A stretch of 60,539 nucleotides of DNA, taken from a virus. Numbering within the stretch: position 1 is the stretch's first letter; each line of letters starts with the position of its first letter. The notes beneath the pieces are model-generated. The model saw nothing but the letters and a program-made list of their open reading frames with translations, was not told the DNA's origin and did not search any database. The translations under genes were made by a program, and so were the position numbers. The stretch lies in IMG/VR virus record IMGVR_UViG_3300028048_000007, positions 1 through 60,539 of that record; one strand, written 5' to 3'. Positions 27,798 to 51,073 of this stretch are shown one piece after another.

Positions 27798-27832
27798 TTT
27801 AAACTCCTTTTAGGCTTGTTTATTATTACGAA

Positions 27833-27904
27833 CAACCCCTGTAGGACTCGAACCTACAATAATCAGAACCAAAATCTGATGCCTTACCATTTGGCGAAGG
27901 GGCT
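27833..27904 (-). tRNA. tRNA-Gln (anticodon UUG)
   Basis: Hand fold: acceptor AGCCCCT/AGGGGTT (one G.U), D arm GCC-AAATGGTAA-GGC, anticodon arm TCAGA-TTTTGGT-TCTGA, T arm GTAGG-TTCGAGT-CCTAC, discriminator G, no encoded CCA. Confidence 0.85.
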
Positions 27905-27929
27905 ATAAGGGAGATTGCTCCCCCTATTG

Positions 27930-29953: not shown

Positions 29954-29957
29954 TTAT

Positions 29958-30602: not shown

Positions 30603-30615
30603 CTTTTATCTCCTT

Positions 30616-31373: not shown

Positions 31374-31488
31374 CCTCCAGAATTTCTCTTTCTGTTTCCT
31401 CTAACTCATTTGCATCACAGTTACAATAAAACTTTCCATCTACATAAATCTTATAATGTCCATTAACATATTCATGTGTAACTTCCAT
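31345..31488 (-). CDS. Possible small acidic protein (47 aa)
   Basis: Hand translation MEVTHEYVNGHYKIYVDGKFYCNCDANELEE..; ATG abuts the dnaE stop, behind GAGGT. Confidence 0.4.
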   Translation of the reverse strand: MEVTHEYVNGHYKIYVDGKFYCNCDANELEETEREILEDEDEKTDYG

Positions 31489-33045
31489 TTAATTTACCTC
31501 TCTACATAATAAAGTGCTGTTATATTTCGTTACTCTACTTATGTATTCCTTTTTATCGAATGTAGCCGCACCACATTCTTTTAACTTTGATAACACACCA
31601 ATGTTTACTGCACTTCCTTTAAAGTGTGTTCTATCGTAGAAATTATCATATGAAGTAAATATACCGTTCTTCTTTCTTTCTTCTACAATTTGAAGTGCCG
31701 CTTTTTCACCGATACCTTTTATATCAGAAAGACCTTGTTGTAAACAATATTCTCCTTCAACCTTTCTTATTCTTGTTTTAACATCAGAATAATTTATATG
31801 AGGAAGAAATACAACGTTTCCTGCTTTTGCCGCTAACACGCAACACTTATAATAAGTATCGTCATTTGGTGCATACTTTAATTTACCAAACCAGAAATGC
31901 AACGGATAATGTACCTTGTAAAACATTTCCTCTACAGCAAGTAGTGCATAACCAACTGCATGACCTTTGTTAAAACCATACATGTCGGTTGCTGAACTAA
32001 ATATCTGCTCCGCTTCATCTCGTTTAAAACCATTTGACATAGCACCCTTTACAAATATGTCATGAAGTTCTTTCTTTGTCTGATTAAACTTCTCACGCTT
32101 CTCTGGTGACATTGCTTTTGAACCATCCATTTTCATAACCTTATCTGCATCTGTCCATTCCATACCACCAAGATAAACACATATCTGTTGTACTTGCTCT
32201 TGATAAATAATTGTTCCGTATGTTTCTTTTGTATAATCATAATACAATAATTCTTTTGCAGTTTCGATATTGCTCTTATTATCTGCGTACTGTTCGGGCA
32301 TGTGTGTTGATAATGCGGCAGGTCTATTCATTGCATTTGCGGCTACAACATCATTGAAGTCTGTACAGTTAATATCAACCAACATGTTTCTAACAGTTTT
32401 CTTATCAAACTGAAATACGCCTTGCGTATCTCCTTTATGAAATGCTTCAAGCACATCTTTATCTTCAATTGCTTTGTCATAGTCAACAGTTACACCTGTA
32501 AGTTCTCTTAACTCACCAATCTCTTCCATTGTTTGAAGTCCAAGAATGTCAAACTTGATAACTCCAATTGCTTCAATGTCATTCAAATCATAATTGGTGT
32601 AAACGTTTCCTTCTTTATCCATTTTCAAAGCTGTATAATCAAGTATATCTCCACCTGTTACAGCAACACCTGCGGCATGTGTACCAATATATCTTACTTT
32701 CTGATACAACTTACTAAAATGAATAAATATGTTATCATACTCTTTGTTATACATCTGAATCTCTTTGTCTTCCAACATTGCATCCAAATCCAAATTGGAA
32801 TCAGAATCAAGATATTTATTACAAAGTGATTTAATCTGTTTTATTGTTCTTTCATTACTTGCTTTCTGTTCACCATCAACAGTTTTATCAGTAGGCAATC
32901 CACAAACCTTTGCTAAATCATTTATAAGGTTGTCTACTTTATACAGACCATAAGAAACTATTCTTGCTGTATGTCCTTCATATTTATTTATGATATACTC
33001 GATTACTTCATGTCTTCTTGCTGTTTCAAAATCAAGGTCAATATC
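31489..33045 (-). CDS. dnaE: DNA polymerase III alpha subunit (DnaE-type), exon 2
   Basis: Begins DIDLDFETARRHEVIEYI.. (the catalytic Asp motif) and continues with ..GTHAAGVAV.., ..KFDILGLQT.. The ATG listed at 33046-33048 is interpreted as the last intron codon (ends in G). Confidence 0.8.
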   Translation of the reverse strand, partial: DIDLDFETARRHEVIEYIINKYEGHTARIVSYGLYKVDNLINDLAKVCGLPTDKTVDGEQKASNERTIKQIKSLCNKYLDSDSNLDLDAMLEDKEIQMYNKEYDNIFIHFSKLYQKVRYIGTHAAGVAVTGGDILDYTALKMDKEGNVYTNYDLNDIEAIGVIKFDILGLQTMEEIGELRELTGVTVDYDKAIEDKDVLEAFHKGDTQGVFQFDKKTVRNMLVDINCTDFNDVVAANAMNRPAALSTHMPEQYADNKSNIETAKELLYYDYTKETYGTIIYQEQVQQICVYLGGMEWTDADKVMKMDGSKAMSPEKREKFNQTKKELHDIFVKGAMSNGFKRDEAEQIFSSATDMYGFNKGHAVGYALLAVEEMFYKVHYPLHFWFGKLKYAPNDDTYYKCCVLAAKAGNVVFLPHINYSDVKTRIRKVEGEYCLQQGLSDIKGIGEKAALQIVEERKKNGIFTSYDNFYDRTHFKGSAVNIGVLSKLKECGAATFDKKEYISRVTKYNSTLLCREVN

Positions 33046-33820
33046 CATTCATACCCTCGGTTTCCCGATATTTATTAGGGGATTAGACTATCTCTTACAG
33101 AATCAAATTCTGTTGTGGCACTTCCGCTGTGTGCTTATCTCACAGCGTACTTCCTTACGGAATAGTCGTTACATTTTTCGCAATTCAACTTCTTTGTTTT
33201 TGTAATGTTTAACAAGCATAGAATAACTACAACCATATTTCTTTGAAGCATACTTACTTGCATCTGTTACGCTCCAAAAAGAATTAATAAATTCACCTTT
33301 GTAATACAAATCAATAACATTATAATTTCTAAAAGGTGTATCTTTTCTTCGTTCATAACCTTTATTAATGTTATCTTTTTGTGTTACCCAACGGAGATTT
33401 TTATAATAGTTATTCTCTTTATTTCCGTCAATGTGGTCAACAACAAGTTCTTCTTCATAGCCTTCACAAAACAACATAGCAACCGCCCTGTGAATTGCAA
33501 TTCTTTTCACTACACCTTCATCAGAACACTTAATATACAAATATCCTTGGTTACTTTTGTAAGGTGTCAAATTTCTTCCTGTTTTCTTGTTGTAAACATC
33601 ACCACATTCATTAACGCAAATGTTTTTAAAATTTGGAATTACCTTAAACATACAAAAACTCCTTGCGACTTAACTCGGTATTACCAACTATCCATTTCTG
33701 GACTTTAGGTTTTCTTACGAAGCGTATTCGTGCATATAGCCTTATTTAACTTCTACCGATAGCATAGCATTACGCTACACACCTGTTAGCACAGTTCACC
33801 ACATACGCCCAATATTGTTT
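33046..33820 (-). mobile_element. Group I intron (775 nt) in dnaE carrying an HNH homing-endonuclease ORF
   Basis: Exon 1 ends ..FRRFLRKDKKKLP (last nt U) and exon 2 starts DIDLDF; joined they parallel E. coli FERFLNPERVSMPDFDVDF. Intron ends in G. GGGCG at intron nt 12-16 can pair with exon UGCCU (U.G at the splice site). GUAA-tetraloop hairpins in both non-coding flanks. Confidence 0.75.
33169..33651 (-). CDS. HNH homing endonuclease (HNH_3 type), intron-encoded
   Basis: ..HRAVAMLF..VVDHIDGNKENNYYKNLRWVTQKDNINKG.. Confidence 0.85.
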   Translation of the reverse strand: MFKVIPNFKNICVNECGDVYNKKTGRNLTPYKSNQGYLYIKCSDEGVVKRIAIHRAVAMLFCEGYEEELVVDHIDGNKENNYYKNLRWVTQKDNINKGYERRKDTPFRNYNVIDLYYKGEFINSFWSVTDASKYASKKYGCSYSMLVKHYKNKEVELRKM

Positions 33821-35002
33821 AGGCAACTTCTTCTTATCTTTTCTTAAGAATCTACGGAAGTCCATACCGAACATTAAACTGTCTATTTCGGTTATTCCCA
33901 ACGCATAAGCAACAAGACAGTTACAACAACTACCTCTGCCAGGACCAACTGTAATTCCCTGTTCCTTTGCCCAGTTTACGTAGTCTGCAACAATAAGGAA
34001 GTAATCATGAAAACCAAGGGTTTCAATTACATCATATTCCTGTTTAATACGGTCTATATATTCTTTCTTCCACTTACCTCTTCTTTCAAGACCTTCTTTT
34101 ATCTGTTTCTTTAATAGTGACTTACTATCCTTTGAATACTTGGGTAAGATTTCTTCAAAGTCAGCAAACATATCATCAACACATTTATCTTCAATCTCTT
34201 TTAAGTTTCTGATACATTGTTTACCGAATTTCTTGCACATCTCTTCTGTCTTAAAATCAACAGAGTGCATGTTAACAAATCGTGTGTAAAGTTCTTTGTC
34301 TGTAGGCATATATCTTTCTTTATATGTCCTTGCAATTTCATCTACATCATGATTTGCTATTTCGTGCATCTTTAAATAAGATTCAAAATCATCTTTCCTA
34401 CCTCTATGAGAATCAGAAGTAAGAATACATTTAATACCAAGTTCTCTTGACAATTCAATCAGAGTTTTATTTACAAGTTGCTGTAAACCTTTTTCAGAAA
34501 CTTTATAAGGCTGTAATTCTATATAAAAGTCATCAGCAAAAATGCTTTTCATTTTCTTTAAATATTTTCTTGCTTTATCTATGTCACCCTTAACAATACA
34601 TTGTGAACTGTAAGAAGCAACACAAGCAGAAGTAACAATCAAACCCTCATGGAACTTTTCTAACAACTCAAATGTCCAAATAGGATTGTAATACTTCTGT
34701 TTTTCTCCCTCTGTCTGTAAAGCATTTAAGTTGTGATAGCCTTTTGGATTCTTTGCAAACACACACAAATGATAACCTCTGTGCTGTTCAATATATTTTG
34801 GTAAGAAATAACCTTCAACTCCCAATATTGGTTTTATTCCAACTTCCATACATGCTTTGTAATGCTGTACCAAGTTGTTTGTATTTCCGTGGTCGGATAT
34901 ACCTAAAGCGGTATGACCTAACTCTTTTGCTAATTTTGCCAACTCTTTAGGTTTACCAAAACCATCATACGTACTACATTCTGTATGTCGGTGTAAATCC
35001 AT
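33821..35002 (-). CDS. dnaE: DNA polymerase III alpha subunit (DnaE-type), exon 1 (PHP domain and start of the palm)
   Basis: MDLHRHTECSTYDGFG..LGISDHGN..GVEGYF.. PHP motifs. The 16 codons after ..KKKLP in the ORF track are read as intron. Confidence 0.8.
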
Positions 35003-35176
35003 TTATCTAACCCTCTTTGTAAGCATATTTGATAACTGTTTTCTGCAAGCAGGACAAAGTATAACACGTAACGTATTATCTTCATTCCTACCAAAATCTA
35101 CATTGTACAAATCATTTTTAGCTTTACAACATCTGCAACTCGTTACATCATCTTCGTTCTTTGTTATCTTAATCAT
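35003..35176 (-). CDS. Small zinc-ribbon protein (57 aa)
   Basis: Hand translation MIKITKNEDDVTSCRCCKAKND..LCPACRKQL..; fills the gap exactly between the two neighbouring genes. Confidence 0.5.
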   Translation of the reverse strand: MIKITKNEDDVTSCRCCKAKNDLYNVDFGRNEDNTLRVILCPACRKQLSNMLTKRVR

Positions 35177-35177
35177 A

Positions 35178-35900
35178 CTATACTCCTAAATCTAAATCCA
35201 ACGCTCTTATTTCGGATATTTTGATTAAACCAAACTTAAGTTGTTGCATTGTTCTTACTGTTTGATATTTAGATAACTGACTTTTATCTTTAAACAAAGT
35301 GTTTCTGATTGAACAACAATCTTTTATAAATGGATGTGAGTTATCTAACTCTTCCAAACCTGTATCATAAAAATCTAACAAGCCATTTACAAAATAAGAA
35401 CAAACCGTTCCTTCTCCGATATGAATTGTTATTTCTTTTACTTTACAACAATCTGGAAGTTTTCTTAAGAACACGGCAATGAAAACCATATACACTGCTA
35501 ACATTCTTTGTAGTTCAACCTGCTTCATAAACACTACGCATTTACTCCACTTCTGTCTTTTATCATGTCTTGTAAGCATTACCGATAAAAGTGGTACAGA
35601 CTCATCATCTGTAAATGTATATAAACAAGTATCATACTTGGTTTCTTTCAACTTATTATAGAACTGCTTCAATTTCTTTTTATCAACACAGGATTTGGTT
35701 ACAAGAGTCCATTTATATCTCCTGTAACCAAACTCACCTATGTCTATACTACAATCCGTACTTTGAATGGTTAAAATCAAATCCTCAATAAAAGCTGTAT
35801 GTGAAGCAGTATAATCAATCATATCATATGGTTTATACAAAACTTCTCTACCTATGTTGTAGAGTGCTTCATCAAAGTTTTTATATTTTCTGCTTTTCAT
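35178..35900 (-). CDS. Hypothetical protein (240 aa)
   Basis: ORF track; no motif I can name with confidence. Confidence 0.65.
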   Translation of the reverse strand: MKSRKYKNFDEALYNIGREVLYKPYDMIDYTASHTAFIEDLILTIQSTDCSIDIGEFGYRRYKWTLVTKSCVDKKKLKQFYNKLKETKYDTCLYTFTDDESVPLLSVMLTRHDKRQKWSKCVVFMKQVELQRMLAVYMVFIAVFLRKLPDCCKVKEITIHIGEGTVCSYFVNGLLDFYDTGLEELDNSHPFIKDCCSIRNTLFKDKSQLSKYQTVRTMQQLKFGLIKISEIRALDLDLGV

Positions 35901-35913
35901 TGAGTTATATTAA

Positions 35914-36909
35914 TTACTCCCAATCATCATCCTCTTCGTCATCATCTTCATCTTCCCAATCATCATGAGCCTTGTCATTTTCTTTAAGAAGATTGATATA
36001 ATACTTTTCTGACTTCTTGGGTTGTGCTTCTATATCTCTTTCCTTGCAAAGTTTATACAATTCCTTTGCAGACATTGAAGAATAATCTACCTCATCATCT
36101 TCTTCTCCATCTTCCCAATCATCATTGTCATCATCACTGCTGTTCTCTTCGTCATACTCTTTCAACAGTTCAATGTAATAATCCTTGGGATTCTTGGGTT
36201 CTGCTTCAATCTCTCTCTCTTCACAAAGTTTGTAAAGTTCCTTTGCAGACATTTCGTTGTAGTCAACATCTGTATCAACTTCTCCCCAAGGAAGTTCCTT
36301 TTCAGCAGACTTCTTTTTGGTTGAAGATGACTTCTTCTTCATCTTGGGGGAATCATCTTCATCCTCATCATCATCTCCACCAAGAAGATGTGAATGTTCA
36401 TCGGGATATGCCTTATCAAGAAGTTCAAGAAATGCTTTCTTTGAAAAAGGCTTTGCTTTTGCGTTCTTAAAACTATTCTTATCCATAGGCATAGCAGACA
36501 TTGTTTTATCCTTCTGCTTTCCTTGGCAACTGATAACATAATCTCTATCGGTAATTGTTCCGTAAGTTTCATATGCGGCAGTAATTGCTCCAAGAGGTGA
36601 ACAGTTATTCATGGCATACATGAAAATCTTAACTTCTTTTGCTTCATAATCCCAAACAGACCAAGCATAAAGAGTTCTTGTTCTCAAACCTTCCTCATCA
36701 CAATAAGGGCAACTCTTACCGAACATCTCTCTACAAGGAACATTGATGTTTGCTTCAAAGTTGTCGTGGAAAACAACTTCAATTCCATCATCCAAATCCT
36801 GTAAAAATCTTACTCTTCTTTTCTCTCCGTCCTTACAGAAGAAGAACTTTGTTTTACTGCCACCTGTTTTCTGTGCATCCTGTTTAATTTTGTCTAACAA
36901 ACCTGCCAT
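35914..36909 (-). CDS. Putative single-stranded DNA-binding protein (Zn-finger OB-type) with two C-terminal HeH/SAP-like repeats and an acidic tail ..EEDDDWE
   Basis: ..VPCREMFGKSCPYCDEEG.., position among replication genes, acidic C-terminus. Tandem DY(N/S)xMSAKELYKLC(E/K)ER(E/D)IEA(E/Q)PK..YYI(E/N)LLKE repeats. Confidence 0.5.
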   Translation of the reverse strand: MAGLLDKIKQDAQKTGGSKTKFFFCKDGEKRRVRFLQDLDDGIEVVFHDNFEANINVPCREMFGKSCPYCDEEGLRTRTLYAWSVWDYEAKEVKIFMYAMNNCSPLGAITAAYETYGTITDRDYVISCQGKQKDKTMSAMPMDKNSFKNAKAKPFSKKAFLELLDKAYPDEHSHLLGGDDDEDEDDSPKMKKKSSSTKKKSAEKELPWGEVDTDVDYNEMSAKELYKLCEEREIEAEPKNPKDYYIELLKEYDEENSSDDDNDDWEDGEEDDEVDYSSMSAKELYKLCKERDIEAQPKKSEKYYINLLKENDKAHDDWEDEDDDEEDDDWE

Positions 36910-36930
36910 TTTAAATACTTCCTTTCTATT

Positions 36931-37143
36931 TTAGTTCTCGGAAAATTCTTTCCAATGATTTGCAAAATAGCTACGATGATGTTTAATGGGTTTATTCAAC
37001 TTGGTTTCTCTCGGTGAACGAGGTTTCCAATCCTCTTTACATGCACCACAGATACCAGTTTTCTTCATCTTTACTCTTGCTACATGTCTGTCAATACTTC
37101 TTACGTGGATTCTTTCGCTCTGACACTTTACTTTCTTTTTCAT
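36931..37143 (-). CDS. Small basic protein (70 aa)
   Basis: ORF track; overlaps the primase 3' end by 53 nt. Confidence 0.5.
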   Translation of the reverse strand: MKKKVKCQSERIHVRSIDRHVARVKMKKTGICGACKEDWKPRSPRETKLNKPIKHHRSYFANHWKEFSEN

Positions 37144-38140
37144 ACATTTTCTCCTTTAGTAGTTTTATTGTTTTGTCGTACATTTTGAAGAACATACCTT
37201 TATTTGTTTCTCCGCAATCTTTAATACCTTTTAAGTATTGCCAACGAACAACTCTATCTTCACCGAATACGGTCTTAAGATATTCTGTTCCTTTTCTACC
37301 ACAGGTATCATTATCCAAAGCAGAGATAACATACTTAACATTTGCATCACGCAGTTTCTTTTGTTGTTCTTGTGACATTTTCCAACCAAGGATTGCACAC
37401 ACACCTTTTTCTACACCAAACTGAACAAACTTAAGTCTATCCATGTAGCCTTCAACAATTATTACATACTTACAACCTGCATAATCCCCAACCAAAGTTG
37501 TTCTACGCATAAACCCACCATTGTAAAGATACTTTCTTTTCTTTTCAATATCGGGATTATTTGTTCTGCATACCCAACCTTTAAATTTACCGTTATCCAA
37601 CATGGGGAATATAATGGGATATGATTTGTTGAATGTAACTCTTGCACCACATTTATTTAATGTGTTTGGTGTAAAACCTCGTTTAAGCATATACGCTTTT
37701 GAATCATTGACTTCCTCTAAATCAGAAGTTTTCCAATCAATCTTGCTCAAACCGTAAAAATAATCATAAGCCATGTTATACAGTTCTTCGCTTTCTTTCT
37801 TGGTTTTCATTTTCGTATTTACTTTTAATCTTTCAACTTTATCTGATTTGAGAATTTCAAAGAATTTTTTAAGAACTTTTAGACCTGTATTTCCTTTTTT
37901 CTGTTCTACGCTTTCTACAAAATCATATGCGTTCCCAGATTTATTACATCCGAAACAGAAGAATTTACCATCGTGAAGATTGACTATCATGGATGGGTTA
38001 TAATCTTCATGAAACGGACACACAATCTTTTGTTCAACTTCGTTTACATCTGATATTAACCCATAATAAAAAAGAACTTTACCAAGTTCTTCTCCACCAA
38101 CTTCAAACTTATATGGTTTTCCTACCTCTGGTTTATTCAT
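37091..38140 (-). CDS. DnaG-type DNA primase (CHC2 zinc finger + Toprim)
   Basis: CPFHEDYNPSMIVNLHDGKFFCFGCNKSG; Toprim ..VIIVEGYMD.. and ..SALDNDTCGRKG.. Confidence 0.85.
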   Translation of the reverse strand: MNKPEVGKPYKFEVGGEELGKVLFYYGLISDVNEVEQKIVCPFHEDYNPSMIVNLHDGKFFCFGCNKSGNAYDFVESVEQKKGNTGLKVLKKFFEILKSDKVERLKVNTKMKTKKESEELYNMAYDYFYGLSKIDWKTSDLEEVNDSKAYMLKRGFTPNTLNKCGARVTFNKSYPIIFPMLDNGKFKGWVCRTNNPDIEKKRKYLYNGGFMRRTTLVGDYAGCKYVIIVEGYMDRLKFVQFGVEKGVCAILGWKMSQEQQKKLRDANVKYVISALDNDTCGRKGTEYLKTVFGEDRVVRWQYLKGIKDCGETNKGMFFKMYDKTIKLLKEKMYEKESKVSERKNPRKKY

Positions 38141-39369: not shown

Positions 39370-39579
39370 TTTTTTTACTCCTTTTAAATAAATTGTTTAC
39401 ATTGTTTTTAGATTAATCCCCACAGCACCGTCATGGCACTGTGGAGCAATCTCTATATGAAGTTGTGAACACAATACCGAAACTCACATATATCTTACAC
39501 TGATTTTAACTCATTTCGTTTACACCTAAAAAGGTGCTTATTTACGATATTCTTGGTCGGTTATTTGTGCTATGAGAAT

Positions 39580-39608
39580 ATTCTATCCCTTTAACTTTTG
39601 TTTGTCAA
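39580..39608 (-). promoter_or_regulatory. Sigma-A-type promoter (-35 TTGACA, 17 nt, -10 TAGAAT) starting the replication-module operon; ~200-nt leader
   Basis: Reverse complement reads TTGACAaacaaaagttaaagggaTAGAAT, preceded by AAAAATATTTTGAAAATA. Confidence 0.7.
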
Positions 39609-39637: not shown

Positions 39638-39964
39638 CTAAACCCCTGTATTCATGCGGTTTTCTGTAGATTTGCTTTCCAAAAGTTTATTTAAAGCATC
39701 CGATAAATCAAATAAAAATGTATCTACAAAACCACACAGCATTTCTTCTATTTCTACAGATAAATCATATCCATAAGAAAATAACCACACATGTGTAAGT
39801 TCATGCAATAAAACCTTCTTAAGTAAATCTCCTTGCAAACTGTTGTGAATATAAACAGTATGTGTATTCCTGTCAGTTATTCCCAAACGCACTGTACCGT
39901 TTAATTCTAAATCATGTGGATTATCGGTAAAAACTATTCTCCATTTTATACCATTTACTGTCAT
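39638..39964 (-). CDS. Small HExxH zinc-metallopeptidase-like protein (SprT/ImmA-like)
   Basis: ..LLKKVLLHELTHVWLFSYGY..EIEEMLCGF.. Confidence 0.55.
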   Translation of the reverse strand: MTVNGIKWRIVFTDNPHDLELNGTVRLGITDRNTHTVYIHNSLQGDLLKKVLLHELTHVWLFSYGYDLSVEIEEMLCGFVDTFLFDLSDALNKLLESKSTENRMNTGV

Positions 39965-40000
39965 AATAAAATAGGGAGCATAAACTGCTCCCTACCTCCG

Positions 40001-40552
40001 TTACATATTAGTTATCTGTGTTAATTTTGCTTTCCACATCTGTTTTTCTTCTGGTGACATATCCTGTATCATTTCTTTTGCCATATCATACAAATCATCC
40101 ATATAGTCATTCAGAAGTTGTTTTCTATGCTTTGCACTTTCGGGGTCTGTCATAGGATATTCAGAACGTTTCTGTACATATTCATCGTGAGAAAAGCCGT
40201 AACGTGATTCATTTCTGTTACTATACATATCTCTTGTCATGTCTTCGGGTCTATGTGCATATGTATTGTAACTCATACGACCATTTCTGCTACCAGACAT
40301 ATACCTTCCTCTGCTATCTCTACGAACAGGGTAACCCATATCTTCATAATAAGTTTCATCTGCGTTATGTTCGTGCATTGCATTTACAACACTATCATAG
40401 TATTTCTTTTCTGCTTTCAGTTTTTCAATTTCATAAGAGTCTTTAATCATATCAACAACTTCACCCATTTCTTTTGCGTTGACTTTATCAAGACCTTCTT
40501 CCATCTTTTCCGAAACACAGAGTTCAAGTTTTTCTGCAAATAAGTTAGCCAT
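40001..40552 (-). CDS. Hypothetical protein (183 aa), Arg/Tyr/Met-rich middle region
   Basis: ORF track; start set to MANLFAEK (9 nt after GGAGG). Confidence 0.65.
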   Translation of the reverse strand: MANLFAEKLELCVSEKMEEGLDKVNAKEMGEVVDMIKDSYEIEKLKAEKKYYDSVVNAMHEHNADETYYEDMGYPVRRDSRGRYMSGSRNGRMSYNTYAHRPEDMTRDMYSNRNESRYGFSHDEYVQKRSEYPMTDPESAKHRKQLLNDYMDDLYDMAKEMIQDMSPEEKQMWKAKLTQITNM

Positions 40553-40949
40553 TTCCATTTACCTCCGTTGTTGGTGCTGTTCCATCTATTGCAAGTAAAT
40601 CATTATTAGGAGAACAACAAATTCTACCAAGCAATCTGAAACTTCCACTTGTAGGAGAAGTTACAACTCTAGTAGCATACCTTGTTCTTGTTCTAATGCT
40701 ACAAGCTGTAGCCTGTGAACAATCACACTTCTGTAAGGGGTACAATTCTGTTCCTGTTCCTATCTGAATAAATACGGGAGCATTTATTGTAGTTGCATCG
40801 GGTATGTTCTGTGCAACAACTATACAATACTTCTCTCCATCTTCATATGAACCTTGTGGAAGTGTAATAATAAGATTAGGTGCTGTAAATGTAACCGCTG
40901 TACTTATTCTGATTCTGTCACACAATTTACACACATTTGTACAAGCCAT
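40545..40949 (-). CDS. Cys-rich beta-type protein of unknown function (134 aa)
   Basis: MACTNVCKLCD.. N-terminus, central ..CDCSQATAC.., C-terminal ..RICCSPNN..; start behind GGAGG. Confidence 0.7.
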   Translation of the reverse strand: MACTNVCKLCDRIRISTAVTFTAPNLIITLPQGSYEDGEKYCIVVAQNIPDATTINAPVFIQIGTGTELYPLQKCDCSQATACSIRTRTRYATRVVTSPTSGSFRLLGRICCSPNNDLLAIDGTAPTTEVNGNG

Positions 40950-40991
40950 AATTACCTCCAATCAAGGGGTGGTTGTTCACCACCCCGAACA

Positions 40992-41177
40992 TCAACCAAG
41001 TTTGGTGAGTATTTGTTCTAACATTGTGATTATCTTTTCCAAGTATTCTGTATCTTGCTTTGCCAAATGACTTGCAATCTCATCATTACTTGTAGACTTT
41101 AGTTCTTCCTCATAATTCTGTAACTGTAACATCACAGAAAACCAAGTAAGAACATTCATCATATAATCATTATTCAT
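40992..41177 (-). CDS. Hypothetical protein (61 aa)
   Basis: ORF track 40992..41198; start moved to MNNDYMMNV, 2 nt after the upstream stop. Confidence 0.55.
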   Translation of the reverse strand: MNNDYMMNVLTWFSVMLQLQNYEEELKSTSNDEIASHLAKQDTEYLEKIITMLEQILTKLG

Positions 41178-41179
41178 AA

Positions 41180-41956
41180 TTACATACCGCAACCACAATT
41201 ACCTATACCATAAGAAGCAGTATAAGGATTGCAAGTAATGTATGCAGGTCTTGCACAAGGGCGAAGTTCATTAATCAGATAGTTATTCTGCTTCTCCTGT
41301 GAAGCCGCAAGACGAAGTGCTTGATTTTCCTGTTGAAGATTTGCAATCTTATCATTAACAAGGAAGTCATACAGAGTTCTCGTATTTGCATTTGCATTGT
41401 CAGTAATATCCCTAACAGCCGTAGCAATACTATTCTGAACAGCACAAGTATCTGTTGCCTGTTGATATGCAACCTGTGCAAATCCATTTTGTGTCTTGCA
41501 ACAACAATCCTTAATGCTATCATTAAGCATATAAGTATTCTGCATGTTTGCAATCATATTCTGCTGTGCGGCATTTCTGGTTTCATAACCATCTCTTACG
41601 ATAGAAAGATTTACAGCATCAAATCCTGTTGCAATCTGATTAGCAAGATTATCTACTCTATCGGTAAAATACTGATTCTGATTTGCGAAACCATCAGAAA
41701 GACTCTGCTGTAATCCTCTTACTCCACTCTGTAAATCATTGAAGTTCATGTCTTGGCAAAGTTCTCCTCTGGTAAGTGCGGCATTACCTGCACCGTTTCC
41801 CCAACCAAAACCATTACCAAATCCACCTCCAAAGATAGCGGCAATTACAACAAGCCAAATAATAACTTCAAAGCCATTACCAAAACTGTTGCCCCAACCA
41901 CCACCATAATTCATAGGAACTACAGGCATAGTCATACCACTTTCACTATTAAACAT
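41180..41956 (-). CDS. Gly-rich single-TM protein with an Asn/Gln-rich body and Cys clusters (258 aa); unknown function
   Basis: ..NYGGGWGNSFGNGFEVIIWLVVIAAIFGGGFGNGFGWGNGAGN.., ..DCCCK.., C-terminus ..ITCNPYTASYGIGNCGCGM; AGGAGG RBS. Confidence 0.75.
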   Translation of the reverse strand: MFNSESGMTMPVVPMNYGGGWGNSFGNGFEVIIWLVVIAAIFGGGFGNGFGWGNGAGNAALTRGELCQDMNFNDLQSGVRGLQQSLSDGFANQNQYFTDRVDNLANQIATGFDAVNLSIVRDGYETRNAAQQNMIANMQNTYMLNDSIKDCCCKTQNGFAQVAYQQATDTCAVQNSIATAVRDITDNANANTRTLYDFLVNDKIANLQQENQALRLAASQEKQNNYLINELRPCARPAYITCNPYTASYGIGNCGCGM

Positions 41957-42011
41957 AATGATTCCTCCTTAAAGTTATTTGTTTATTGTTAAGTATGCAT
42001 ACTTTAACTAA

Positions 42012-42224
42012 CTATTTTGTTATACCAAACATATTCATTGCTTTATTGTAATACTCTTCTATATCTATACCTTTTTCTTTTGCTAAATTTCTGGCAAACT
42101 CTTCAAGTCCTTTTACATCATTCTTTTGTGCCATACCTATTACATTGTTCATCATAGGATTTTGATTTCCAAACTGCTGTGAAAGTCTGTTAACAATCAT
42201 CTGCATAGGATTAAAAGTAGGCAT
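42012..42224 (-). CDS. Hypothetical protein (70 aa)
   Basis: ORF track. Confidence 0.6.
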   Translation of the reverse strand: MPTFNPMQMIVNRLSQQFGNQNPMMNNVIGMAQKNDVKGLEEFARNLAKEKGIDIEEYYNKAMNMFGITK

Positions 42225-42226
42225 AA

Positions 42227-42631
42227 TTAATTCTCCTTTTTACTTACAGACTTTTTAGAAAGTATTTCTTGCAATGCTGTCAATTGTTCCTCTATACCAT
42301 TAAGTTTTACCATCATGGGATTTTCTTTTTCTTCTGTTTCTTCTTTAATTGCTTTATAAGTAATTTGTTCCGTTGTACCATTTTGCAACCAACGTTTTGA
42401 ATATATTTCAGTGCCATCCGCTTTAGGGAAATAATAAGTATTTCCATCCATAGGAATATCTGCACTCTTAAACACTTCAAAACTTTCAACCATCTTTCCA
42501 TTCAAACCTGTTTGTGGTGTTTGTTGTTGTGGTACAAATTGTGGTTGTGGTTGATACTGTGGAATGGGTTGATTAAAACCATATCCATTCATTGCATTTG
42601 GTGTGTAAGGATTAAACACTGGATAGTTCAT
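42227..42631 (-). CDS. Hypothetical protein with a Gln/Pro-rich N-terminus (134 aa)
   Basis: ORF track 42227..42655; start moved to MNYPVFNPY behind GAGGAGG; ..QPIPQYQPQPQFVPQQQTPQ.. Confidence 0.65.
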   Translation of the reverse strand: MNYPVFNPYTPNAMNGYGFNQPIPQYQPQPQFVPQQQTPQTGLNGKMVESFEVFKSADIPMDGNTYYFPKADGTEIYSKRWLQNGTTEQITYKAIKEETEEKENPMMVKLNGIEEQLTALQEILSKKSVSKKEN

Positions 42632-42632
42632 T

Positions 42633-42740
42633 TTAAACCTCCTCAATTGAAACAATTTGACTTATAAGAATTACAAGAAATTTACTTGGAACTTTCTTTA
42701 GCATTTGAATAAACTTTTCTGTCACTACAATTTCATACAT
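42633..42740 (-). CDS. Possible small protein (35 aa), first ORF of the accessory operon
   Basis: Hand translation MYEIVVTEKFIQMLKKVPSKFLVILISQIVSIEEV behind AAGGAGG. Confidence 0.35.
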   Translation of the reverse strand: MYEIVVTEKFIQMLKKVPSKFLVILISQIVSIEEV

Positions 42741-42847
42741 GGCTTCAACCTCCTTTGTGACAATTAAAACATATCTCAAATGTAAATAAGTGTAGAATAA
42801 AGATAAAAAGAAAATAAAAGAAATATACCAAAAATAGACAACAAAAA

Positions 42848-42883
42848 AGCACCCACATAACCGTTTCCAGTTATATGAGTGCT
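42848..42883 (-). terminator. Rho-independent terminator overlapping the stop of 42871..43101
   Basis: On the coding strand: AGCACTCATATAAC-tggaaacg-GTTATGTGGGTGCT (14 bp including 2 G.U), followed by TTTTTTG. Confidence 0.75.
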
Positions 42884-43101
42884 TCGATACGTTTTAGAAT
42901 CCGTTGATGCATTTTAACTACTCCTGCTTTTGAATATCCTAATTCATCCGCTATGTAATCAAAACTTTTTCTCTCAACATAATACATTTGCATTAAACGT
43001 TTTTCCTTATCGCTTAACATGGAATTTTCCAACAAAGAATTGAACTCCAATTTACTTGGTATTTGTTGTACCTTGTGTTTTATATCTATATGATGTGTCA
43101 T
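42871..43101 (-). CDS. Small sigma-70 region-4-like HTH protein (76 aa)
   Basis: ..LSDKEKRLMQMYYVERKSFDYIADELGYSKAGVVKMHQRILKRIEAL.. resembles region 4.2 only. Start moved to MTHHIDIK (ATGA overlap with the upstream ORF). Confidence 0.65.
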   Translation of the reverse strand: MTHHIDIKHKVQQIPSKLEFNSLLENSMLSDKEKRLMQMYYVERKSFDYIADELGYSKAGVVKMHQRILKRIEALI

Positions 43102-43232
43102 ATATATCTCCCACAAGCAGGACAACGTTTTGATGTTCTCTTTGGTTTTCTACCACCTTTAGTGTTAGAAGAACTTCTCACTCTGCTTCTTGTTACAACA
43201 ACTGTTCTCGTTGTCGTTTGTCTTGCTCCCAT
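43098..43232 (-). CDS. Possible Arg/Thr-rich micro-protein (44 aa) ending in CPAC
   Basis: Hand translation MGARQTTTRTVVVTRSRVRSSSNTKGGRKPKRTSKRCPACGRYI; fills the gap exactly. Confidence 0.4.
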   Translation of the reverse strand: MGARQTTTRTVVVTRSRVRSSSNTKGGRKPKRTSKRCPACGRYI

Positions 43233-43234
43233 AA

Positions 43235-43564
43235 TTACTCACCTTCACCTTCACTTTCATTATGAACAGCATTGTCATTATATTGATTTCCTTCAATGTT
43301 ATTTATTGTTGCATTGTCACCATCAACTTCTTGTGTTGTTTCCTCTGAATAAGTGTAAGTGTCAACATATTCGAATTGGCTTTCATACCAAAAGAAACCG
43401 ACAATCATTGAAGCAATAATTACCGTAAAACAAATTGAAAGAATCACAATAAGTTTTATAAGTGTTTTTGCATTATTCCTTTGGTTCTGAACAACTTGAA
43501 CAAGAAGTTCTGTCAACTCCCTGTCTTTAGTCACCAACTCTTCATGCAACATGTCTTTCATCAC
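43235..43564 (-). CDS. Hypothetical single-TM protein (109 aa)
   Basis: ORF track; ..LIKLIVILSICFTVIIASMIVGFFW.. Confidence 0.65.
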   Translation of the reverse strand: MMKDMLHEELVTKDRELTELLVQVVQNQRNNAKTLIKLIVILSICFTVIIASMIVGFFWYESQFEYVDTYTYSEETTQEVDGDNATINNIEGNQYNDNAVHNESEGEGE

Positions 43565-43833
43565 TACAACCCTACCTTTGTCATAAGAATATGTACTTGT
43601 TCTTTCAAAGATGCAATATCTCTTGAATGTTCATCAATAATTTTATCGAACTTATCATTTCTTTCTTTTACATCTGACTTTAATTCTTCAATACCTTTTA
43701 CACATTGGTCTATTTTTGCAATCAGCACTCCATCCTGTTTTGCTCTTGTAAGTTGTGCAGAAACAAATGTGGCAACTCCTACTACACAGCCTATAATACC
43801 TACAACGCAACCGATTAAAGAAATTGGTGTCAT
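43564..43833 (-). CDS. TM + coiled-coil protein (XhlA-like organisation)
   Basis: N-terminal ..ISLIGCVVGIIGCVVGVATFV.., then a heptad-like region. Confidence 0.55.
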   Translation of the reverse strand: MTPISLIGCVVGIIGCVVGVATFVSAQLTRAKQDGVLIAKIDQCVKGIEELKSDVKERNDKFDKIIDEHSRDIASLKEQVHILMTKVGL

Positions 43834-46211: not shown

Positions 46212-47720
46212 TTACAAAACACGGTTACCGAAAATCAAATCAAGTATTTCACCCTTTTCGGTTATTGATTTTGTTACACCAACTATCTGTACCTTTACAG
46301 CCATTCCAAGATTTCTGTTTACAACAGTAACATAATCTCCATTATTGTAGTCAACTCCGTATTTAAAAGAGTTATTTGAATTAGTCAAAACAGTTGCTTC
46401 AAAATCATATTCAACTGAATTATCCTTTAACTTCTCCATGCCCCTTTGAGTAAGCATTTCTTCATACTCTTCATCGGTAGTTGCATGTCTTTGAGCAGGT
46501 ACAGACTCTACATACAATGTACCTCCACTCATATACTGAATGTTGCTGTCGGTAACACAGACAATTACAAAAGAATCATAATGGTCTAATTCATTATCCT
46601 CTGCTTTGCAAGAAATGTCAAAGTCGAAGTTAACAATTGAACCTGCTTCTATAGTTTCGTTTACAACAACAATGTCGGGATAAGCAACTCCACCAAGATA
46701 AGGAACTATATAAAATCCAAAACTTGAAGATTGTTCTCCTGTACTTTTAACAGACACATTGCCTTTTACTGTAAAGTTTGTAATTTGAACATTTTGCAAA
46801 CTTGAAGCAGAAGCAGAATTCCAAACAACCTGTCTTGTTCCATCACCTGTCATTTGAGAACTTTTATACTCCAATTCATTTGCTTCTTGCTTTTGTAAAT
46901 CTCTCGCATCTACATAAAGTTCAACTCTATCCATATCCGTTAGTTCTTTATCACCAACTTCAATGACTTTTCTATCTTCTCCCTTATCTTCACCTGCAAC
47001 TATTGCAACCGTCTTTGCTTTAGTTGAATTAAGTTCGTACATAAGGTTTTCAACATTGTTTAAATTTGTATCAAACATTACAGGGTCGTTTCCACTTTGA
47101 TTTCCAACCGTTCTGTCAGTAGGAACATATTGTTCAAAAACAATATGCATTATGTTTTGATTTCTTCCTGTACTTGGATTGTACTTGGCAATCCCAGGAA
47201 CTAAACCAAAACCATAATGGTAAGGGTCATTCATTTCCTTTATTACCTCTGCACAATCACTTCCTGTTTGACAAAAGTTTACTTCCTCTGTGTTATGGTC
47301 GTAAGTGTCACCAACCATCATCAGACTCATTCTTCTTCTAAAATCCTCTGAACTGATAAAAAACTCCTGTACAAAATGTCTTTGCACCTCAAACACTTTA
47401 TCTTTAAGTCTAAAAGTTTTTTGAAATGTTCTGTACGACAAAAGATGTGAAAGCATATAGCCTTTTATCTGAACAGTGGGAGTAGAAATATTTTCACTAT
47501 GGAAATACTTTATAATTCCCATTATGAATTTATTACCAAGTTTTTCGAACAAAATAAAGTTACCTGCTACCAATAAATACGGCAGACTACTTTCTGTTAT
47601 TGGTACAGTTATTTGGAAAGTACCAACATCATTAAAGTAGTCTGTGTATTGTACAAAGGTATATGTTCGAATTATATCAACTCTATCGAAAGTATTCTTA
47701 TCATATATTTCAAGTAACAT
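46212..47720 (-). CDS. Tail-associated lysin/Tal-like tail tip protein
   Basis: 502 aa; N-terminus MLLEIYDKN..FQITVP..; position directly after Dit. Confidence 0.7.
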   Translation of the reverse strand: MLLEIYDKNTFDRVDIIRTYTFVQYTDYFNDVGTFQITVPITESSLPYLLVAGNFILFEKLGNKFIMGIIKYFHSENISTPTVQIKGYMLSHLLSYRTFQKTFRLKDKVFEVQRHFVQEFFISSEDFRRRMSLMMVGDTYDHNTEEVNFCQTGSDCAEVIKEMNDPYHYGFGLVPGIAKYNPSTGRNQNIMHIVFEQYVPTDRTVGNQSGNDPVMFDTNLNNVENLMYELNSTKAKTVAIVAGEDKGEDRKVIEVGDKELTDMDRVELYVDARDLQKQEANELEYKSSQMTGDGTRQVVWNSASASSLQNVQITNFTVKGNVSVKSTGEQSSSFGFYIVPYLGGVAYPDIVVVNETIEAGSIVNFDFDISCKAEDNELDHYDSFVIVCVTDSNIQYMSGGTLYVESVPAQRHATTDEEYEEMLTQRGMEKLKDNSVEYDFEATVLTNSNNSFKYGVDYNNGDYVTVVNRNLGMAVKVQIVGVTKSITEKGEILDLIFGNRVL

Positions 47721-48670
47721 TACTGTTCCTCCACCGCATACTTTTCGGGTTTAATTTCAACGGTAACGGTAAGGAGAAGTTCACTTTCATTATCGGTTGA
47801 ATAACCGATGAGGTTTGAACCTATACCAAATTCCAACCATGTATTATCAAAATCCCAATACTTAAAATAGTTTTGTGTAGGTTCACCACTACCACCTTTT
47901 ATACCTCTATAACTTCCTGCTCTTGTATCAACTACAATTACTTCACCTCTTTGCATTGTTTTATAGATGGTAAAACTCTCTCCTGTTTCAATGTTTTCTA
48001 CAGTAGGATTTACAACCTCACCACTTGCTTCAAGTTTAATTATTCCTCCAACTTTACTATCTCCTTCGTTATCTACAGAGATAACCAAATAATCAGTTCT
48101 TGTGCTAAACTGAAAACCTATATTTGGTATCTCTAAAGGAAAATGCCAAGCAGGTGATGCACCACTAACAACCGTGTTGGGTGCAACAACTTTGTGAAAC
48201 ATAGGATTAAAACAACGAATGTTTATAACAAACATACAAAAATATTCGTTATTCTCTTGATAGGTATTTCCATACTGTATAGAACGTGTAGGCTTTCCTT
48301 CAATATAGAAATTGCCAATTGTTACTCTCAAATAATCTTTCGGGTTTATCAACCCATTTAACACTTTCTTTTTCTCTAACATCTTCTGCTCTATTAAAGC
48401 AGGTATACCATCAAACTTTCCATAGTTACTTAAGTCCACCTCTGTAGGAACATAAAAAGCATAACCTGTTATTGTTATCTCCCTACCTGTGATGTTTGTA
48501 ATTGAGTCGTACTCACCAACCTGCCCTGGGTAGGTGTAAGTAGAATGAGTTGCAGGAGCATAACCCCAATCAAGACCATCACTTTTAAAAATGTAATCAT
48601 ACTTTGGTGTCTGACCGAAAGTAACTCTTTCCTTCGTAGTTTGATTTTCAATTATGAAACCTTTAACCAT
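47720..48670 (-). CDS. Distal tail protein (Dit)
   Basis: 316 aa immediately after the tape measure gene; 1-nt TAATG coupling to Tal. Confidence 0.7.
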   Translation of the reverse strand: MVKGFIIENQTTKERVTFGQTPKYDYIFKSDGLDWGYAPATHSTYTYPGQVGEYDSITNITGREITITGYAFYVPTEVDLSNYGKFDGIPALIEQKMLEKKKVLNGLINPKDYLRVTIGNFYIEGKPTRSIQYGNTYQENNEYFCMFVINIRCFNPMFHKVVAPNTVVSGASPAWHFPLEIPNIGFQFSTRTDYLVISVDNEGDSKVGGIIKLEASGEVVNPTVENIETGESFTIYKTMQRGEVIVVDTRAGSYRGIKGGSGEPTQNYFKYWDFDNTWLEFGIGSNLIGYSTDNESELLLTVTVEIKPEKYAVEEQ

Positions 48671-48682
48671 CCTACTCTCCTT

Positions 48683-51073
48683 TTACACCAGACCAAGTTC
48701 AATATCCTTCATTGTTCTTCTCAACTCTTGTGCGGCTGTATACTCATCAATTCTTTCATTTGAATAGAAATTAATCGTAGTACCATTTCCACTTGTTGAA
48801 GAATACCTTTGATTCTCTTGTGCAGTAAGAACTCTTTCACCTTTATGAAGTTCTGCTACATAACCATCATAAGGAACATAAGCAAGACCGTTTGCATGTG
48901 AACCATCAAACAAATTAAAATCGCCATTCTTAAACATATCGGCAATTCCATTCATTGAGTTCTTTATCAAATCTCCCCATCTTGTGAGAATTTTTCCAAG
49001 CCAAGTATTCTTAAACCAATTTGTAAGTTTCTCCCAAATACTCTTGGCAATGTCAAACAAACCATCCCACATCTTTTTCCACAAGTCAGCAACAACGCCA
49101 AATGCCGCACCAAGAACATTAACAAGAATATTTGCAAGACCTGCTACTGCTTCAAGAATTGCCGCAATAACTTCAAGGATAGGTCTTAAAACAGTAACCA
49201 CACCTTTAAGTATTGTACCAAGTATTTTGATTGCCGCAACAAGTGTAGTACCTATAATTTCAATTAACGGACTTAACGCTTGAAAAACTGTTTTAATCAA
49301 ACCTGCAATAACTTCAATTATCGGTGCAAGTATTTCTGCAAGCAATTCAATAATCGGTTCTATTGCTTTTACAATCTCATGAAATATTTCAATCAACATA
49401 TCAAATATCGGTTTGACAAAATCCCAAGCCGCTTTAAGCACTTCAACAATAGCGTTCCAAATTCTTGTAACATTCTCTCTGAACTCTTCATTGTTTTGCC
49501 ACAAATCAATTATTGCGGCAATTACAACAGCAATGATTGCAACCCATCCTGCCATTGTTGAGGTCAACGCACTAATGCCACCTTTTAATATTCCAATAAT
49601 TCCATGTGCAGAACCTATATTGGTTGTTAGTGTAGTAAACAAAGCTGAAACACCTTTAATTAAAGGTTGGAAAAGTTTGAAGCTTTCCATTATTAAACCA
49701 ATAGACTTTAATAAGTTGCCTAACACTAACAAAACTGGACCGATTGCGGCGGCAAACAAGCCCCATTTAATTATTTGTTCCTTTTGTGACTCATCCAATT
49801 CATTAAACTGTTTTACAAGTTCAGTAAGTTTTTGAATAAATTCTCTCAACTCACCCTTAACAATGTCTGCTAACATTATCTTGGTTGTTCCCAACGCACT
49901 TGTAAATCTAACCCAATCACCTTGCAAATTATCCATTTGAGTGTGAGCCATTTCAGCCGCATATTCACCTGTCTGTGCGGCTTCATCAATGTAACCTGCA
50001 AGTTTATCAAATTCTGGACCTGCTTGATTTATTATAGCCAACATTGTAGGCATTGCTCTTGTACCAAACAAATCTACAATGGCTTTCAATTTTTCCTGTT
50101 GAGTTATCGGTAACGAGTCACCATACTCTTGCATGATTTGCTCGCCCTCTTTTAACTCACCATTTGCATCAAATACATCAACAGACAAATCTCCAAAGGT
50201 TGCCTGTAATTGTATCATAAGTTCCCTAAACGGTATTGCTTGACCTGTTGCATCATACAAACTTAATCCATATTTCTCCATAGCCGCTTGTGTAGTGGAT
50301 GTAGGAGAAATAAGATTCTTTAAAGCCTGTCTTAATGAAGTACCTGCTTGTGAAGATTTAATACCTGCATTAGCCGCAAGACCAAGTGCAAGTCCTAAAT
50401 CTTGTATATCATAACCAAGACTTCCTGCAATGGGTGCAACATACTTAAATGATTCACCAAGTTTATCAATATCAGTATTACTGTTAGCCATAACAGCGGC
50501 AAGAACAGAAGTGTAATACGCTGTGTTTTCAATACCGTTTGTTGTTTGACCTGCAACAAGATTCATTGCTGTCATACTGTCGGTAACAACATCTGATGCT
50601 CTACCTAAATCCATGTTACCTGCGGCGGCAAGATTAAGAACACTTCCTAAACCATTTATAGCTTGGTCTACATCCCAACCTGCAAGACCCATATAATAAA
50701 GTGCTTCTGCGGCTTCTGTAGCAGAGTAAACAGTTTGTTCACCCCAATACATAGCAGACTCTCTTAATCTATCCATATCTCCTTCATGGAGAACACTTTG
50801 CATAACTGCTTCAACAGCAGACATTTGTTTATCAAAAGTTGCACCAAACTCTACAACTTCTTGTCCAGCACTAACAAGTGGAACTGTAATACTTCTTGTC
50901 AGCATAGAACCAGTATTTGCTACCAACCCTCCTGCCGACATTAAGTTTTGACCCATTGTAGATGAGTCTTTACCGAAAGTTTGCAAAGCAGATTGTGCCT
51001 GTTGCAAACCAGAGTTAAACGCGGTCATGTTCAAGTCAAGATACGCAACCGCTGTACCGACATTTATAGCCAC
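48683..51073 (-). CDS. Tail tape measure protein
   Basis: 796 aa; GTG start behind GGAGG; TP901-type core (..FGATFDKQMSAVEAVM..) followed by long Ala/Ile/Leu helical repeats. Confidence 0.9.
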   Translation of the reverse strand: MAINVGTAVAYLDLNMTAFNSGLQQAQSALQTFGKDSSTMGQNLMSAGGLVANTGSMLTRSITVPLVSAGQEVVEFGATFDKQMSAVEAVMQSVLHEGDMDRLRESAMYWGEQTVYSATEAAEALYYMGLAGWDVDQAINGLGSVLNLAAAGNMDLGRASDVVTDSMTAMNLVAGQTTNGIENTAYYTSVLAAVMANSNTDIDKLGESFKYVAPIAGSLGYDIQDLGLALGLAANAGIKSSQAGTSLRQALKNLISPTSTTQAAMEKYGLSLYDATGQAIPFRELMIQLQATFGDLSVDVFDANGELKEGEQIMQEYGDSLPITQQEKLKAIVDLFGTRAMPTMLAIINQAGPEFDKLAGYIDEAAQTGEYAAEMAHTQMDNLQGDWVRFTSALGTTKIMLADIVKGELREFIQKLTELVKQFNELDESQKEQIIKWGLFAAAIGPVLLVLGNLLKSIGLIMESFKLFQPLIKGVSALFTTLTTNIGSAHGIIGILKGGISALTSTMAGWVAIIAVVIAAIIDLWQNNEEFRENVTRIWNAIVEVLKAAWDFVKPIFDMLIEIFHEIVKAIEPIIELLAEILAPIIEVIAGLIKTVFQALSPLIEIIGTTLVAAIKILGTILKGVVTVLRPILEVIAAILEAVAGLANILVNVLGAAFGVVADLWKKMWDGLFDIAKSIWEKLTNWFKNTWLGKILTRWGDLIKNSMNGIADMFKNGDFNLFDGSHANGLAYVPYDGYVAELHKGERVLTAQENQRYSSTSGNGTTINFYSNERIDEYTAAQELRRTMKDIELGLV

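Follow-up and report, generated by a model that had tools for sequence, protein, structure and literature searches.

The 60,539-nt IMG/VR virus record IMGVR_UViG_3300028048_000007, which was analysed over its whole length and is called the window here, is a phage genome of about 60 kb whose protein genes lie essentially all on the minus strand and are transcribed in one direction. We studied a block of ten minus-strand open reading frames (ORFs), A to J, at 39638-43232, which an earlier reading of the letters (the original prediction) had described as a terminal accessory operon. All ten ORFs were found where that prediction had placed them and with the compositions it gave, except that I, reported as 183 aa, has 185 aa when counted from its first ATG. 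The block is one copy of a real, self-contained, widespread cassette that is carried and swapped by gut phages, and this cassette is conserved, modular, and dispensable, has autonomous signals, and is broad in its hosts. In the order of transcription, the genes and signals are as follows.

43098-43232, minus strand: A, 44 aa, 20% Arg, with a C-terminal CPACGR; KRCPxCGR[YF] is invariant in close relatives
42871-43101, minus strand: B, 76-aa helix-turn-helix (HTH) protein, sigma-70 region 4-like (DUF1492 / phrog_36)
42846-42885, minus strand: intrinsic terminator, 18-bp stem and T-run, overlapping the stop codon of B
42830-42822, minus strand: putative extended -10 element TGgTATATT, a pattern match directly after the terminator
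42633-42740, minus strand: C, 35 aa, with the strong ribosome-binding site AAGGAGG
42227-42631, minus strand: D, Tyr/Gln/Pro-rich N-terminus, small beta domain, and short C-terminal coiled coil (phrog_21718)
42012-42224, minus strand: E, 70-aa helical protein
41180-41956, minus strand: F, 258-aa predicted single-pass membrane protein (phrog_16490)
40992-41177, minus strand: G, 61-aa helical protein
40545-40949, minus strand: H, 134-aa beta-rich protein with 9 Cys (7%)
40001-40558, minus strand: I, 185 aa, helical ends and a disordered Arg/Gly/Tyr/Ser/Met-rich centre with RRDSxGRY (phrog_28802)
39638-39964, minus strand: J, 108-aa minimal zincin with HELTH (phrog_1233)
39608-39580, minus strand: near-consensus sigma-A promoter TTGACA-17-TAGAAT, which starts the replication module and marks the downstream boundary of the block

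The ORFs are real genes and not chance frames, since their order and sequence are conserved in related contigs. Two relatives at different divergence have the same twelve-gene order, and even the products of 35, 44, and 61 aa are conserved in sequence. The N-terminal 30 residues of C and the whole of G are kept in close relatives; at distant cassette loci, A was not found, C was not detected, and G is sporadic (n = 6). F and H have more than 3,600 database homologs each, which are unnamed and lie mostly on contigs of up to about 60 kb. None of the window proteins D, E, F, G, H, and I matches a Pfam family. The PHROGs to which F, D, I, and J belong have no assigned function, and H belongs to no PHROG. 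In agreement with the original prediction, scans of Pfam and PHROGs placed no core product in a recognised virion or lysis family, and inspection of the sequences revealed no signal peptide or lipobox in any cassette product. Megablast found nothing similar to the block among phage records. In the literature, nothing was found on the cassette, its PHROGs, DUF7841 (a family described below), or the carrier phages, and no virion-proteomics paper was found for any carrier phage; a literature match to "CPD1" was rejected as an unrelated strain name.

The cassette was delimited by scanning one genome per prokaryotic species with an F profile, which yielded 54 loci, nearly all in metagenome-assembled genomes or prophages with the label Clostridia or Bacilli; one bin carries the label Muribaculaceae. 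Gene order at these loci, resolved by iterated profile searches, is fixed: B, (a papain-like protein), D, E, F, H or an alternative protein (alt-H), I or an I-like protein or a DUF7841 protein, and (J), the genes in parentheses being present at only part of the loci. Seen from the window, the cassette begins with the HTH gene B, the terminator, and the -10-type promoter, and goes on with D, E, F, an optional G, H, I, and J. F is followed by H or alt-H at all 54 loci, and an Arg/Gly/Tyr-rich protein (of the I family or DUF7841) is nearly always present. The co-occurrence analysis thus bears out the view that the block is an accessory unit, which is modular across the 54 loci and absent in some relatives.

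This absence was observed in a primase-anchored set of 58 related viral contigs, in which roughly 40 loci include the full 10-kb stretch upstream of the primase. The cassette lies within this interval in about a dozen of them, so that, as in morons, it is present or absent among related phages. The same slot holds different flavours in related phages (H or alt-H; I and J, or the papain-like and I-like proteins). In two relatives, L067 and L104, the flanking holin-like and replication genes are kept, but the whole of A to J is missing at once and two or three unrelated small genes stand in the slot. Because the whole set is absent in relatives that share its neighbours, the cassette is dispensable and is not needed for the basic lytic cycle, and this joint loss indicates that B belongs to it.

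In temperate relatives, the cassette lies past the lysis genes, where the prophage ends. It adjoins host lactate and DNA-repair genes at the prophage end in Vescimonas fastidiosa MM35, and a serine recombinase on the metagenomic contig L063, which has the same H protein as Acutalibacter sp. 1XD8-33. In an archaeal virus it lies near an integrase, and in the Bacteroides phage and crAss-like phages discussed below it occupies other genomic positions. These varied positions indicate that the cassette moves without being bound to structural or lysis modules. A search of 72,556 plasmid records gave one match, inside a prophage, so that plasmids do not serve as its reservoir.

The hallmark of the cassette is F, whose family comprises 2,127 clusters at 50% identity, all of one architecture in an exhaustive search. 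The protein of the window contains 9 Cys, 12% Asn, and 10% Gly. Its hydrophobic core (residues 31-42) is flanked by GGGWGNSFGNGF and GGGFGNGFGWGNG, and the 19-residue Kyte-Doolittle maximum of the segment is 2.13. Two Asn/Gln-rich helices of about 70 residues each are predicted, with a CCC motif between them, and the Cys-rich tail carries a conserved RPxxxPAY motif. Sequence and profile searches of the PDB with F, H, and alt-H returned nothing meaningful.

D accompanies F in 53 of the 54 loci, always just 5' of it, and diverse D members match no Pfam family. E was recognised by its hidden Markov model at 31 of the 54 loci, and an ORF of about 70 aa is located at the E position in all of them. 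The F of the crAss-like phage cr116_1 has a longer N-terminus that resembles E by eye, which suggests an E-F fusion, although the E profile gives no match there. H is the most conserved component of the cassette, with a median identity of 60%; F reaches 48%, and D, E, I, and J reach about 37%. Residues C3, C7, C10, and C42 of H are invariant. The protein has no match in Pfam (29 diverse members were scanned as well), PHROGs, or the PDB. An assignment of H as a radical-SAM or iron-sulfur enzyme, based on Cx3Cx2C, was rejected, because H is too small and distant members do not keep this spacing. The place of H can be taken by alt-H, an unrelated beta-rich protein of about 145 aa (phrog_20016) that is absent from the window. 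H is present in 28 loci and alt-H in 26; the two are mutually exclusive and together cover all 54, and a profile comparison between them detected no homology.

The position after H or alt-H is occupied by I and I-like families, which form one PHROG and together account for 37 loci, or by DUF7841 (PF25223) proteins, which occur there in 15 loci; three loci have both an I-like and a DUF7841 protein. J was found in 12 loci, always together with I. Its HExxH motif is HELTH (HEL[TV]H in relatives), and its matches to Peptidase_M78 (18.7, cutoff 22) and DUF6782 (21.9, cutoff 27) are both below threshold. Another family, phrog_3754 (about 130 aa), is present in 25 loci (for example L008:6595-6984 and L061:7753-8172) and looks like a minimal papain-like cysteine peptidase by its GDC[TA]VRA...H signature. 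Its gene lies between B and D, only at loci that lack J, and the two were never found together.

The original prediction compared B with region 4 of sigma-70 alone and tied this gene to the block, and both points stand. Only residues 29-72 match Sigma70_r4, just under the Pfam cutoff (21.9 bits, cutoff 24.1, E = 1.2e-4), and the score with Sigma70_r4_2 is 20.7 bits (cutoff 25.7). Over residues 10-68, B matches DUF1492 (PF07374) with 22.5 bits, above the cutoff of 21.5, and it also matches phrog_36, "transcriptional regulator" (6.9e-11). As the Pfam scan of the 76-aa protein found no match to sigma-70 region 2, B is not a sigma factor. B is immediately 5' of D in 29 of the 54 loci, is co-absent with the other genes in L067 and L104, and is followed at some loci by phased repeats. 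Helically phased triple direct repeats closely follow B in 7 of 30 loci; shuffled sequences predict 0.2 such loci, and a coding control had 1 of 29. At these loci (L007, L009, L010, L015, L028, L030, and L048), triple 8-mers are spaced by 11 bp or multiples of it within the first 150 nt after B, and their sequence varies from locus to locus. The HTH protein encoded next to them probably binds there. The window itself has no phased repeats downstream of B, and a plain direct-repeat count after B (1 of 30 loci) is not significant, so that significance is reached only with the helical-phasing version. It is plausible that B is a regulator of the cassette.

The strong terminator that had been placed at 42848-42883 was confirmed at 42885-42846, and a hairpin with a T-run follows B in most related loci and in close relatives. 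It had also been stated that the block has no sigma-A promoter. The promoter scan of the window indeed found no -35/-10 pair upstream of the block, but the extended -10 element after the terminator means that the block is not promoter-less, though it lacks a -35 box. TGnTATAAT is present at the same post-terminator site in most related loci, and two close relatives retain there only a -10-like TATAnT without the TG. By consensus-level matches, the cassette has the promoter of its own and the flanking terminator that characterise morons, and these signals agree with the proposal that the block is a separate transcription unit.

The host range extends beyond the Clostridia. Crass-like phage proteins annotated as "spike protein/glycoprotein" or "outer capsid protein/viral fiber" are clear homologs of F (profile E = 6e-38), and homologs are also present in the cultured Bacteroides uniformis phage C3_41T2LP and in viruses assigned to Methanomassiliicoccales. 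All of these keep the Gly/aromatic-flanked hydrophobic core, the CCC motif, RPxPxPAY, and the terminal Cys cluster. Their neighbours are small HExxH proteins, Arg/Gly/Tyr-rich proteins, proteins with a beta domain and a coiled coil, and beta-rich proteins of about 140 aa, among which only DUF7841 is demonstrably common to the Clostridia loci (E down to 1e-43). DUF7841 accompanies F in crAss-like, Bacteroides, and Clostridia phages (L058:4123-4722, L059:8357-8758, L015:9120-9881, and L025:9157-9972). The DUF7841 protein of cr52_1 is annotated as "RNA polymerase sigma factor/ubiquitin-like protein", and the Pfam scan gives DUF7841 only. A profile comparison of H with the proteins that follow F in crAss-like and Bacteroides phages found no homology, and the resemblance of H to these proteins and to alt-H is therefore only positional or compositional. 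The archaea-assigned viruses, L060 (Caudoviricetes sp. vir215) and vir335, carry an F homolog (phrog_16490) near an integrase, and either the family has spread across domains or the host assignment is wrong. The cassette is carried in culture by C. perfringens phages such as CPD1 and CPQ4, by the Bacteroides phage C3_41T2LP, and by lysogens of Vescimonas, of Acutalibacter, and of Agathobaculum (A. desmolans ATCC 43058), and with them its function is directly testable.

In the window, the block is surrounded by the following features.

4376-5752: terminase large subunit
25331-25903, minus strand: Hydrolase_2 (SleB-type) wall hydrolase, about 14 kb from the block
28330-38140: primase, split DnaE-type polymerase, ThyX, and RecA
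43235-43833, minus strand: two membrane-protein genes (89 and 109 aa), each with one hydrophobic helix and a coiled coil
46212-51073: tape measure, Dit-like, and minor-tail genes

The block had been described as lying straight after the last tail genes; the order is correct, but the two membrane-protein genes intervene before A. They probably encode holin-type lysis proteins (only PHROGs of unknown function match the 89-aa product) and are kept in relatives without the cassette. The SleB-type protein is the sole recognisable wall hydrolase and is located about 17 kb from these genes, which is an unusual spacing for a lysis cassette. The GC content of the block equals that of the rest of the genome. 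The glutamine content of the cassette is 5.5%, compared with 3.6% in other large genes, with CAA and CAG used about equally, and the genome has a single tRNA-Gln(UUG) gene (27832-27905, minus strand). Downstream of the block, the sigma-A promoter is followed by an untranslated stretch of about 200 nt with two hairpins before the first gene of the replication module; this leader (39370-39608, minus strand) matches no Rfam family. The DnaE-type polymerase is encoded by two ORFs (31489-35002, minus strand) with the break exactly inside the DNA_pol3_alpha domain, profile positions 2-102 being in 33770-35002 and positions 103-260 in 31489-33048. A 160-aa ORF (33169-33651) separates the halves, which points to either an inserted mobile element or a polymerase that is split by nature. 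Two genes after the terminase genes, and away from the tail module, the gene at 764-2794 (minus strand) codes for a 676-aa protein with an F5/8 type C (discoidin, sugar-binding) domain.

We tentatively favour the explanation that the block is a moron-like accessory cassette which builds an F-anchored membrane complex in the infected cell and brings its benefit at the cell envelope. The terminator after B would insulate the cassette from the late operon, and B would control the cassette promoter. The invariant core consists of F, its constant partner D, the small beta-rich Cys protein (H or alt-H), and the disordered Arg/Gly/Tyr-rich protein (I here). The short hydrophobic segment of F, with its Gly/aromatic flanks, would anchor the protein in the cytoplasmic membrane of the host, and F might serve as a platform for the assembly of D, H, and I, held together by cysteine cross-links or bound metal. 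An optional peptidase, the zincin J here and the papain-like protein elsewhere, may process one of the components. The payoff would probably be the exclusion of competing phages or the control of release, rather than virion building or sporulation. We infer membrane insertion, complex formation, processing, the role of B, and the biological effect from synteny, composition, and predicted secondary structure.

Several points weigh against this explanation. No homology or experiment assigns a function to any cassette protein, and the formation of a complex is deduced from synteny alone. With only 12-13 residues, the hydrophobic core of F is short for a stretch that crosses a membrane, and neither of its flanks has clear positive-inside charges, so that the topology is ambiguous. 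The AlphaFold2 models of F (26 sequences, pLDDT 39.4) and H (22 sequences, pLDDT 45.7) are unusable because the input alignments were shallow, with members at least 50-60% identical. PADLOC 2.0 found no match to a defence system in the cassette; its only hits were those of F to the tail of ZorA at the coiled-coil level (E = 0.002, 15 bits) and of I (16 bits). A role in lysogeny only cannot be general, since crAss-like phages are mostly not temperate and no integrase was found among the ORFs examined in the window phage. Finally, a promoter that needs B, combined with a B made only late in infection, would make the cassette a very-late unit and not a moron expressed in lysogeny.

It has to be considered whether the cassette instead encodes optional parts of the virion, with F as a fibre or ejection protein that inserts into membranes, H or alt-H as a jelly-roll head, I as a scaffold-like helper, and J as a maturation peptidase. 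Depositors gave F homologs the spike and fiber names cited above, presumably because of remote similarity, and the block comes after the tail genes. The low-charge Asn/Gln-rich helices and the Gly-rich hydrophobic segment of F recall tape-measure and ejection proteins, alt-H has a weak match to BclA_C (a TNF-like jelly-roll), and no product has a signal peptide. However, the terminator parts the cassette from the late operon, and the cassette is located among recombination genes in C3_41T2LP and at the prophage end beyond the lysis genes elsewhere. It is also missing from relatives with the same neighbouring genes, its carriers differ greatly in architecture, from a siphovirus-type genome with a tape measure to crAss-like phages, and no component has a structural annotation in PHROGs. 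We regard a virion role as unlikely.

Slightly less likely still is an accessory role in lysis or egress, in which F would be i-spanin-like or would regulate the holin late at the membrane, and B would switch the cassette on after the late operon. The cassette adjoins holin and endolysin genes at most loci, the predicted layout of F (N-terminal anchor, long helices, and conserved cysteines) parallels that of i-spanins as known from Rz, and the late transcription unit ends with B, while the cassette promoter has no -35 box. Yet most hosts are presumably single-membraned Clostridia with no outer membrane to fuse, no lipoprotein partner was found among the cassette sequences, and relatives without the cassette retain the holin-like genes. 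In addition, the crAss-like cr52_1 already has a separate LysB-like gene beside the cassette, and no lysis gene is shown beside the cassette of C3_41T2LP.

We give a similarly low probability to a wider form of the favoured explanation, namely that the cassette is a portable kit for a Cys-cross-linked or metal-bound membrane-anchored assembly shared among viruses of Firmicutes, Bacteroidota, and methanogenic archaea in anoxic guts. Its parts would be F as the anchor and stalk, H or alt-H as a jelly-roll-like head, I or DUF7841 as a disordered scaffold, D as an adaptor, and a maturation peptidase.

A locus for counter-defence or inter-phage conflict, in which the peptidase and disordered proteins would target host immunity and not the envelope, seems improbable to us. 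The slot is hyper-variable, with alternative flavours and interchangeable peptidases, as is typical of arms-race loci, and the protein at the J position in C3_41T2LP is annotated as a PolyVal-type metallopeptidase. The cassette nevertheless matches none of the known defence models in PADLOC, H is unusually conserved for an arms-race protein, and the constant membrane protein is left unexplained.

The original prediction raised the idea of a module, controlled by a sigma-like protein, that would act on or imitate the spore coat or exosporium, and this idea hardly survives. The Cys-, Gly-, and Gln/Pro-rich compositions on which it was built are real, most carriers are Clostridia phages, and the products lack signal peptides, as spore-coat proteins do. 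Moreover, alt-H of other loci weakly resembles BclA_C (PF18573, exosporium nap), and its end, ...NANLIVERVA, is presumably similar to that of BclA. But the BclA_C signal is far below threshold (16 bits, cutoff 38, E about 0.01), alt-H has no sequence match in the PDB, and it is not encoded in the window, whose H protein, like 29 diverse members, gave no match to BclA_C at E <= 1 and matches no spore-coat or exosporium family. F is common to Bacteroidota phages and archaea-assigned viruses, and the crAss-like, Bacteroides, and Methanomassiliicoccales hosts do not sporulate; this host breadth argues against a sporulation-specific role. B has no sigma region 2, and the SleB-like gene that had been taken as a further link lies about 14 kb away and is of the Hydrolase_2 type common among phage wall hydrolases. 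The block is probably not a sporulation mimic.

These results speak for dropping the labels "spike glycoprotein" and "viral fiber" on F. F alone makes up more than 2,000 clusters at 50% identity and spans the bacteria-archaea divide, and no component with a known function, structure, or publication was found. As a common, exchangeable, and dispensable module, the cassette is probably of ecological importance for the phages of anoxic guts, for example in competition between phages, release, or survival outside the host.

We compared the cassette and its proteins with known systems. J resembles the zincins of the ImmA/IrrE (M78) and PolyVal types in having HExxH in a short zincin-like context, with weak matches to M78 and DUF6782. 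It differs from them in scoring under all Pfam thresholds, in its length of only 108 aa, in having no adjacent repressor substrate, and in being replaced by a papain-like protein elsewhere. B is a small region 4-like HTH protein of Firmicutes phages above the DUF1492 threshold, similar to the DUF1492/ArpU/RinA-type regulators. These usually precede the terminase genes and switch on late genes, whereas B closes the late operon and moves together with the cassette.

Exosporium and spore-coat proteins (BclA, ExsY/CotY, and the YjcZ type) share with the cassette products the Cys clusters, the Gly-rich flanks of a hydrophobic helix, and the lack of signal peptides. However, the matches are sub-threshold or absent, the window has H and not alt-H, and F occurs in phages of non-sporulating hosts. 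The YjcZ-type proteins have about 40-50 aa, composed of Gly-rich flanks and one helix, whereas F has 258 aa with a large extra domain, so that at most its N-terminus is comparable. F is also similar to the i-spanin Rz of lambda in its predicted N-terminal anchor and predicted long helical segments, conserved cysteines, and frequent holin or endolysin neighbours. However, it has no sequence similarity to Rz and no lipoprotein partner and is about twice as long, its hosts are mostly single-membraned, and the cassette is dispensable.

The closest parallel is to morons, such as bor and lom of lambda and the toxin cassettes of Firmicutes prophages between the lysis genes and the attachment site. 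Like these, the cassette has an upstream terminator and its own promoter, follows the lysis genes at the prophage end, and is present or absent among similar phages. In contrast to morons, which have one or two genes, it has five to eight co-ordered genes with an HTH gene of its own and no product of known function, and it is also found in apparently non-temperate phages. Should the cassette be a portable kit as outlined above, it would represent a phage-made membrane-anchored assembly of a type not previously described, a prospect to which we attach the same low probability.

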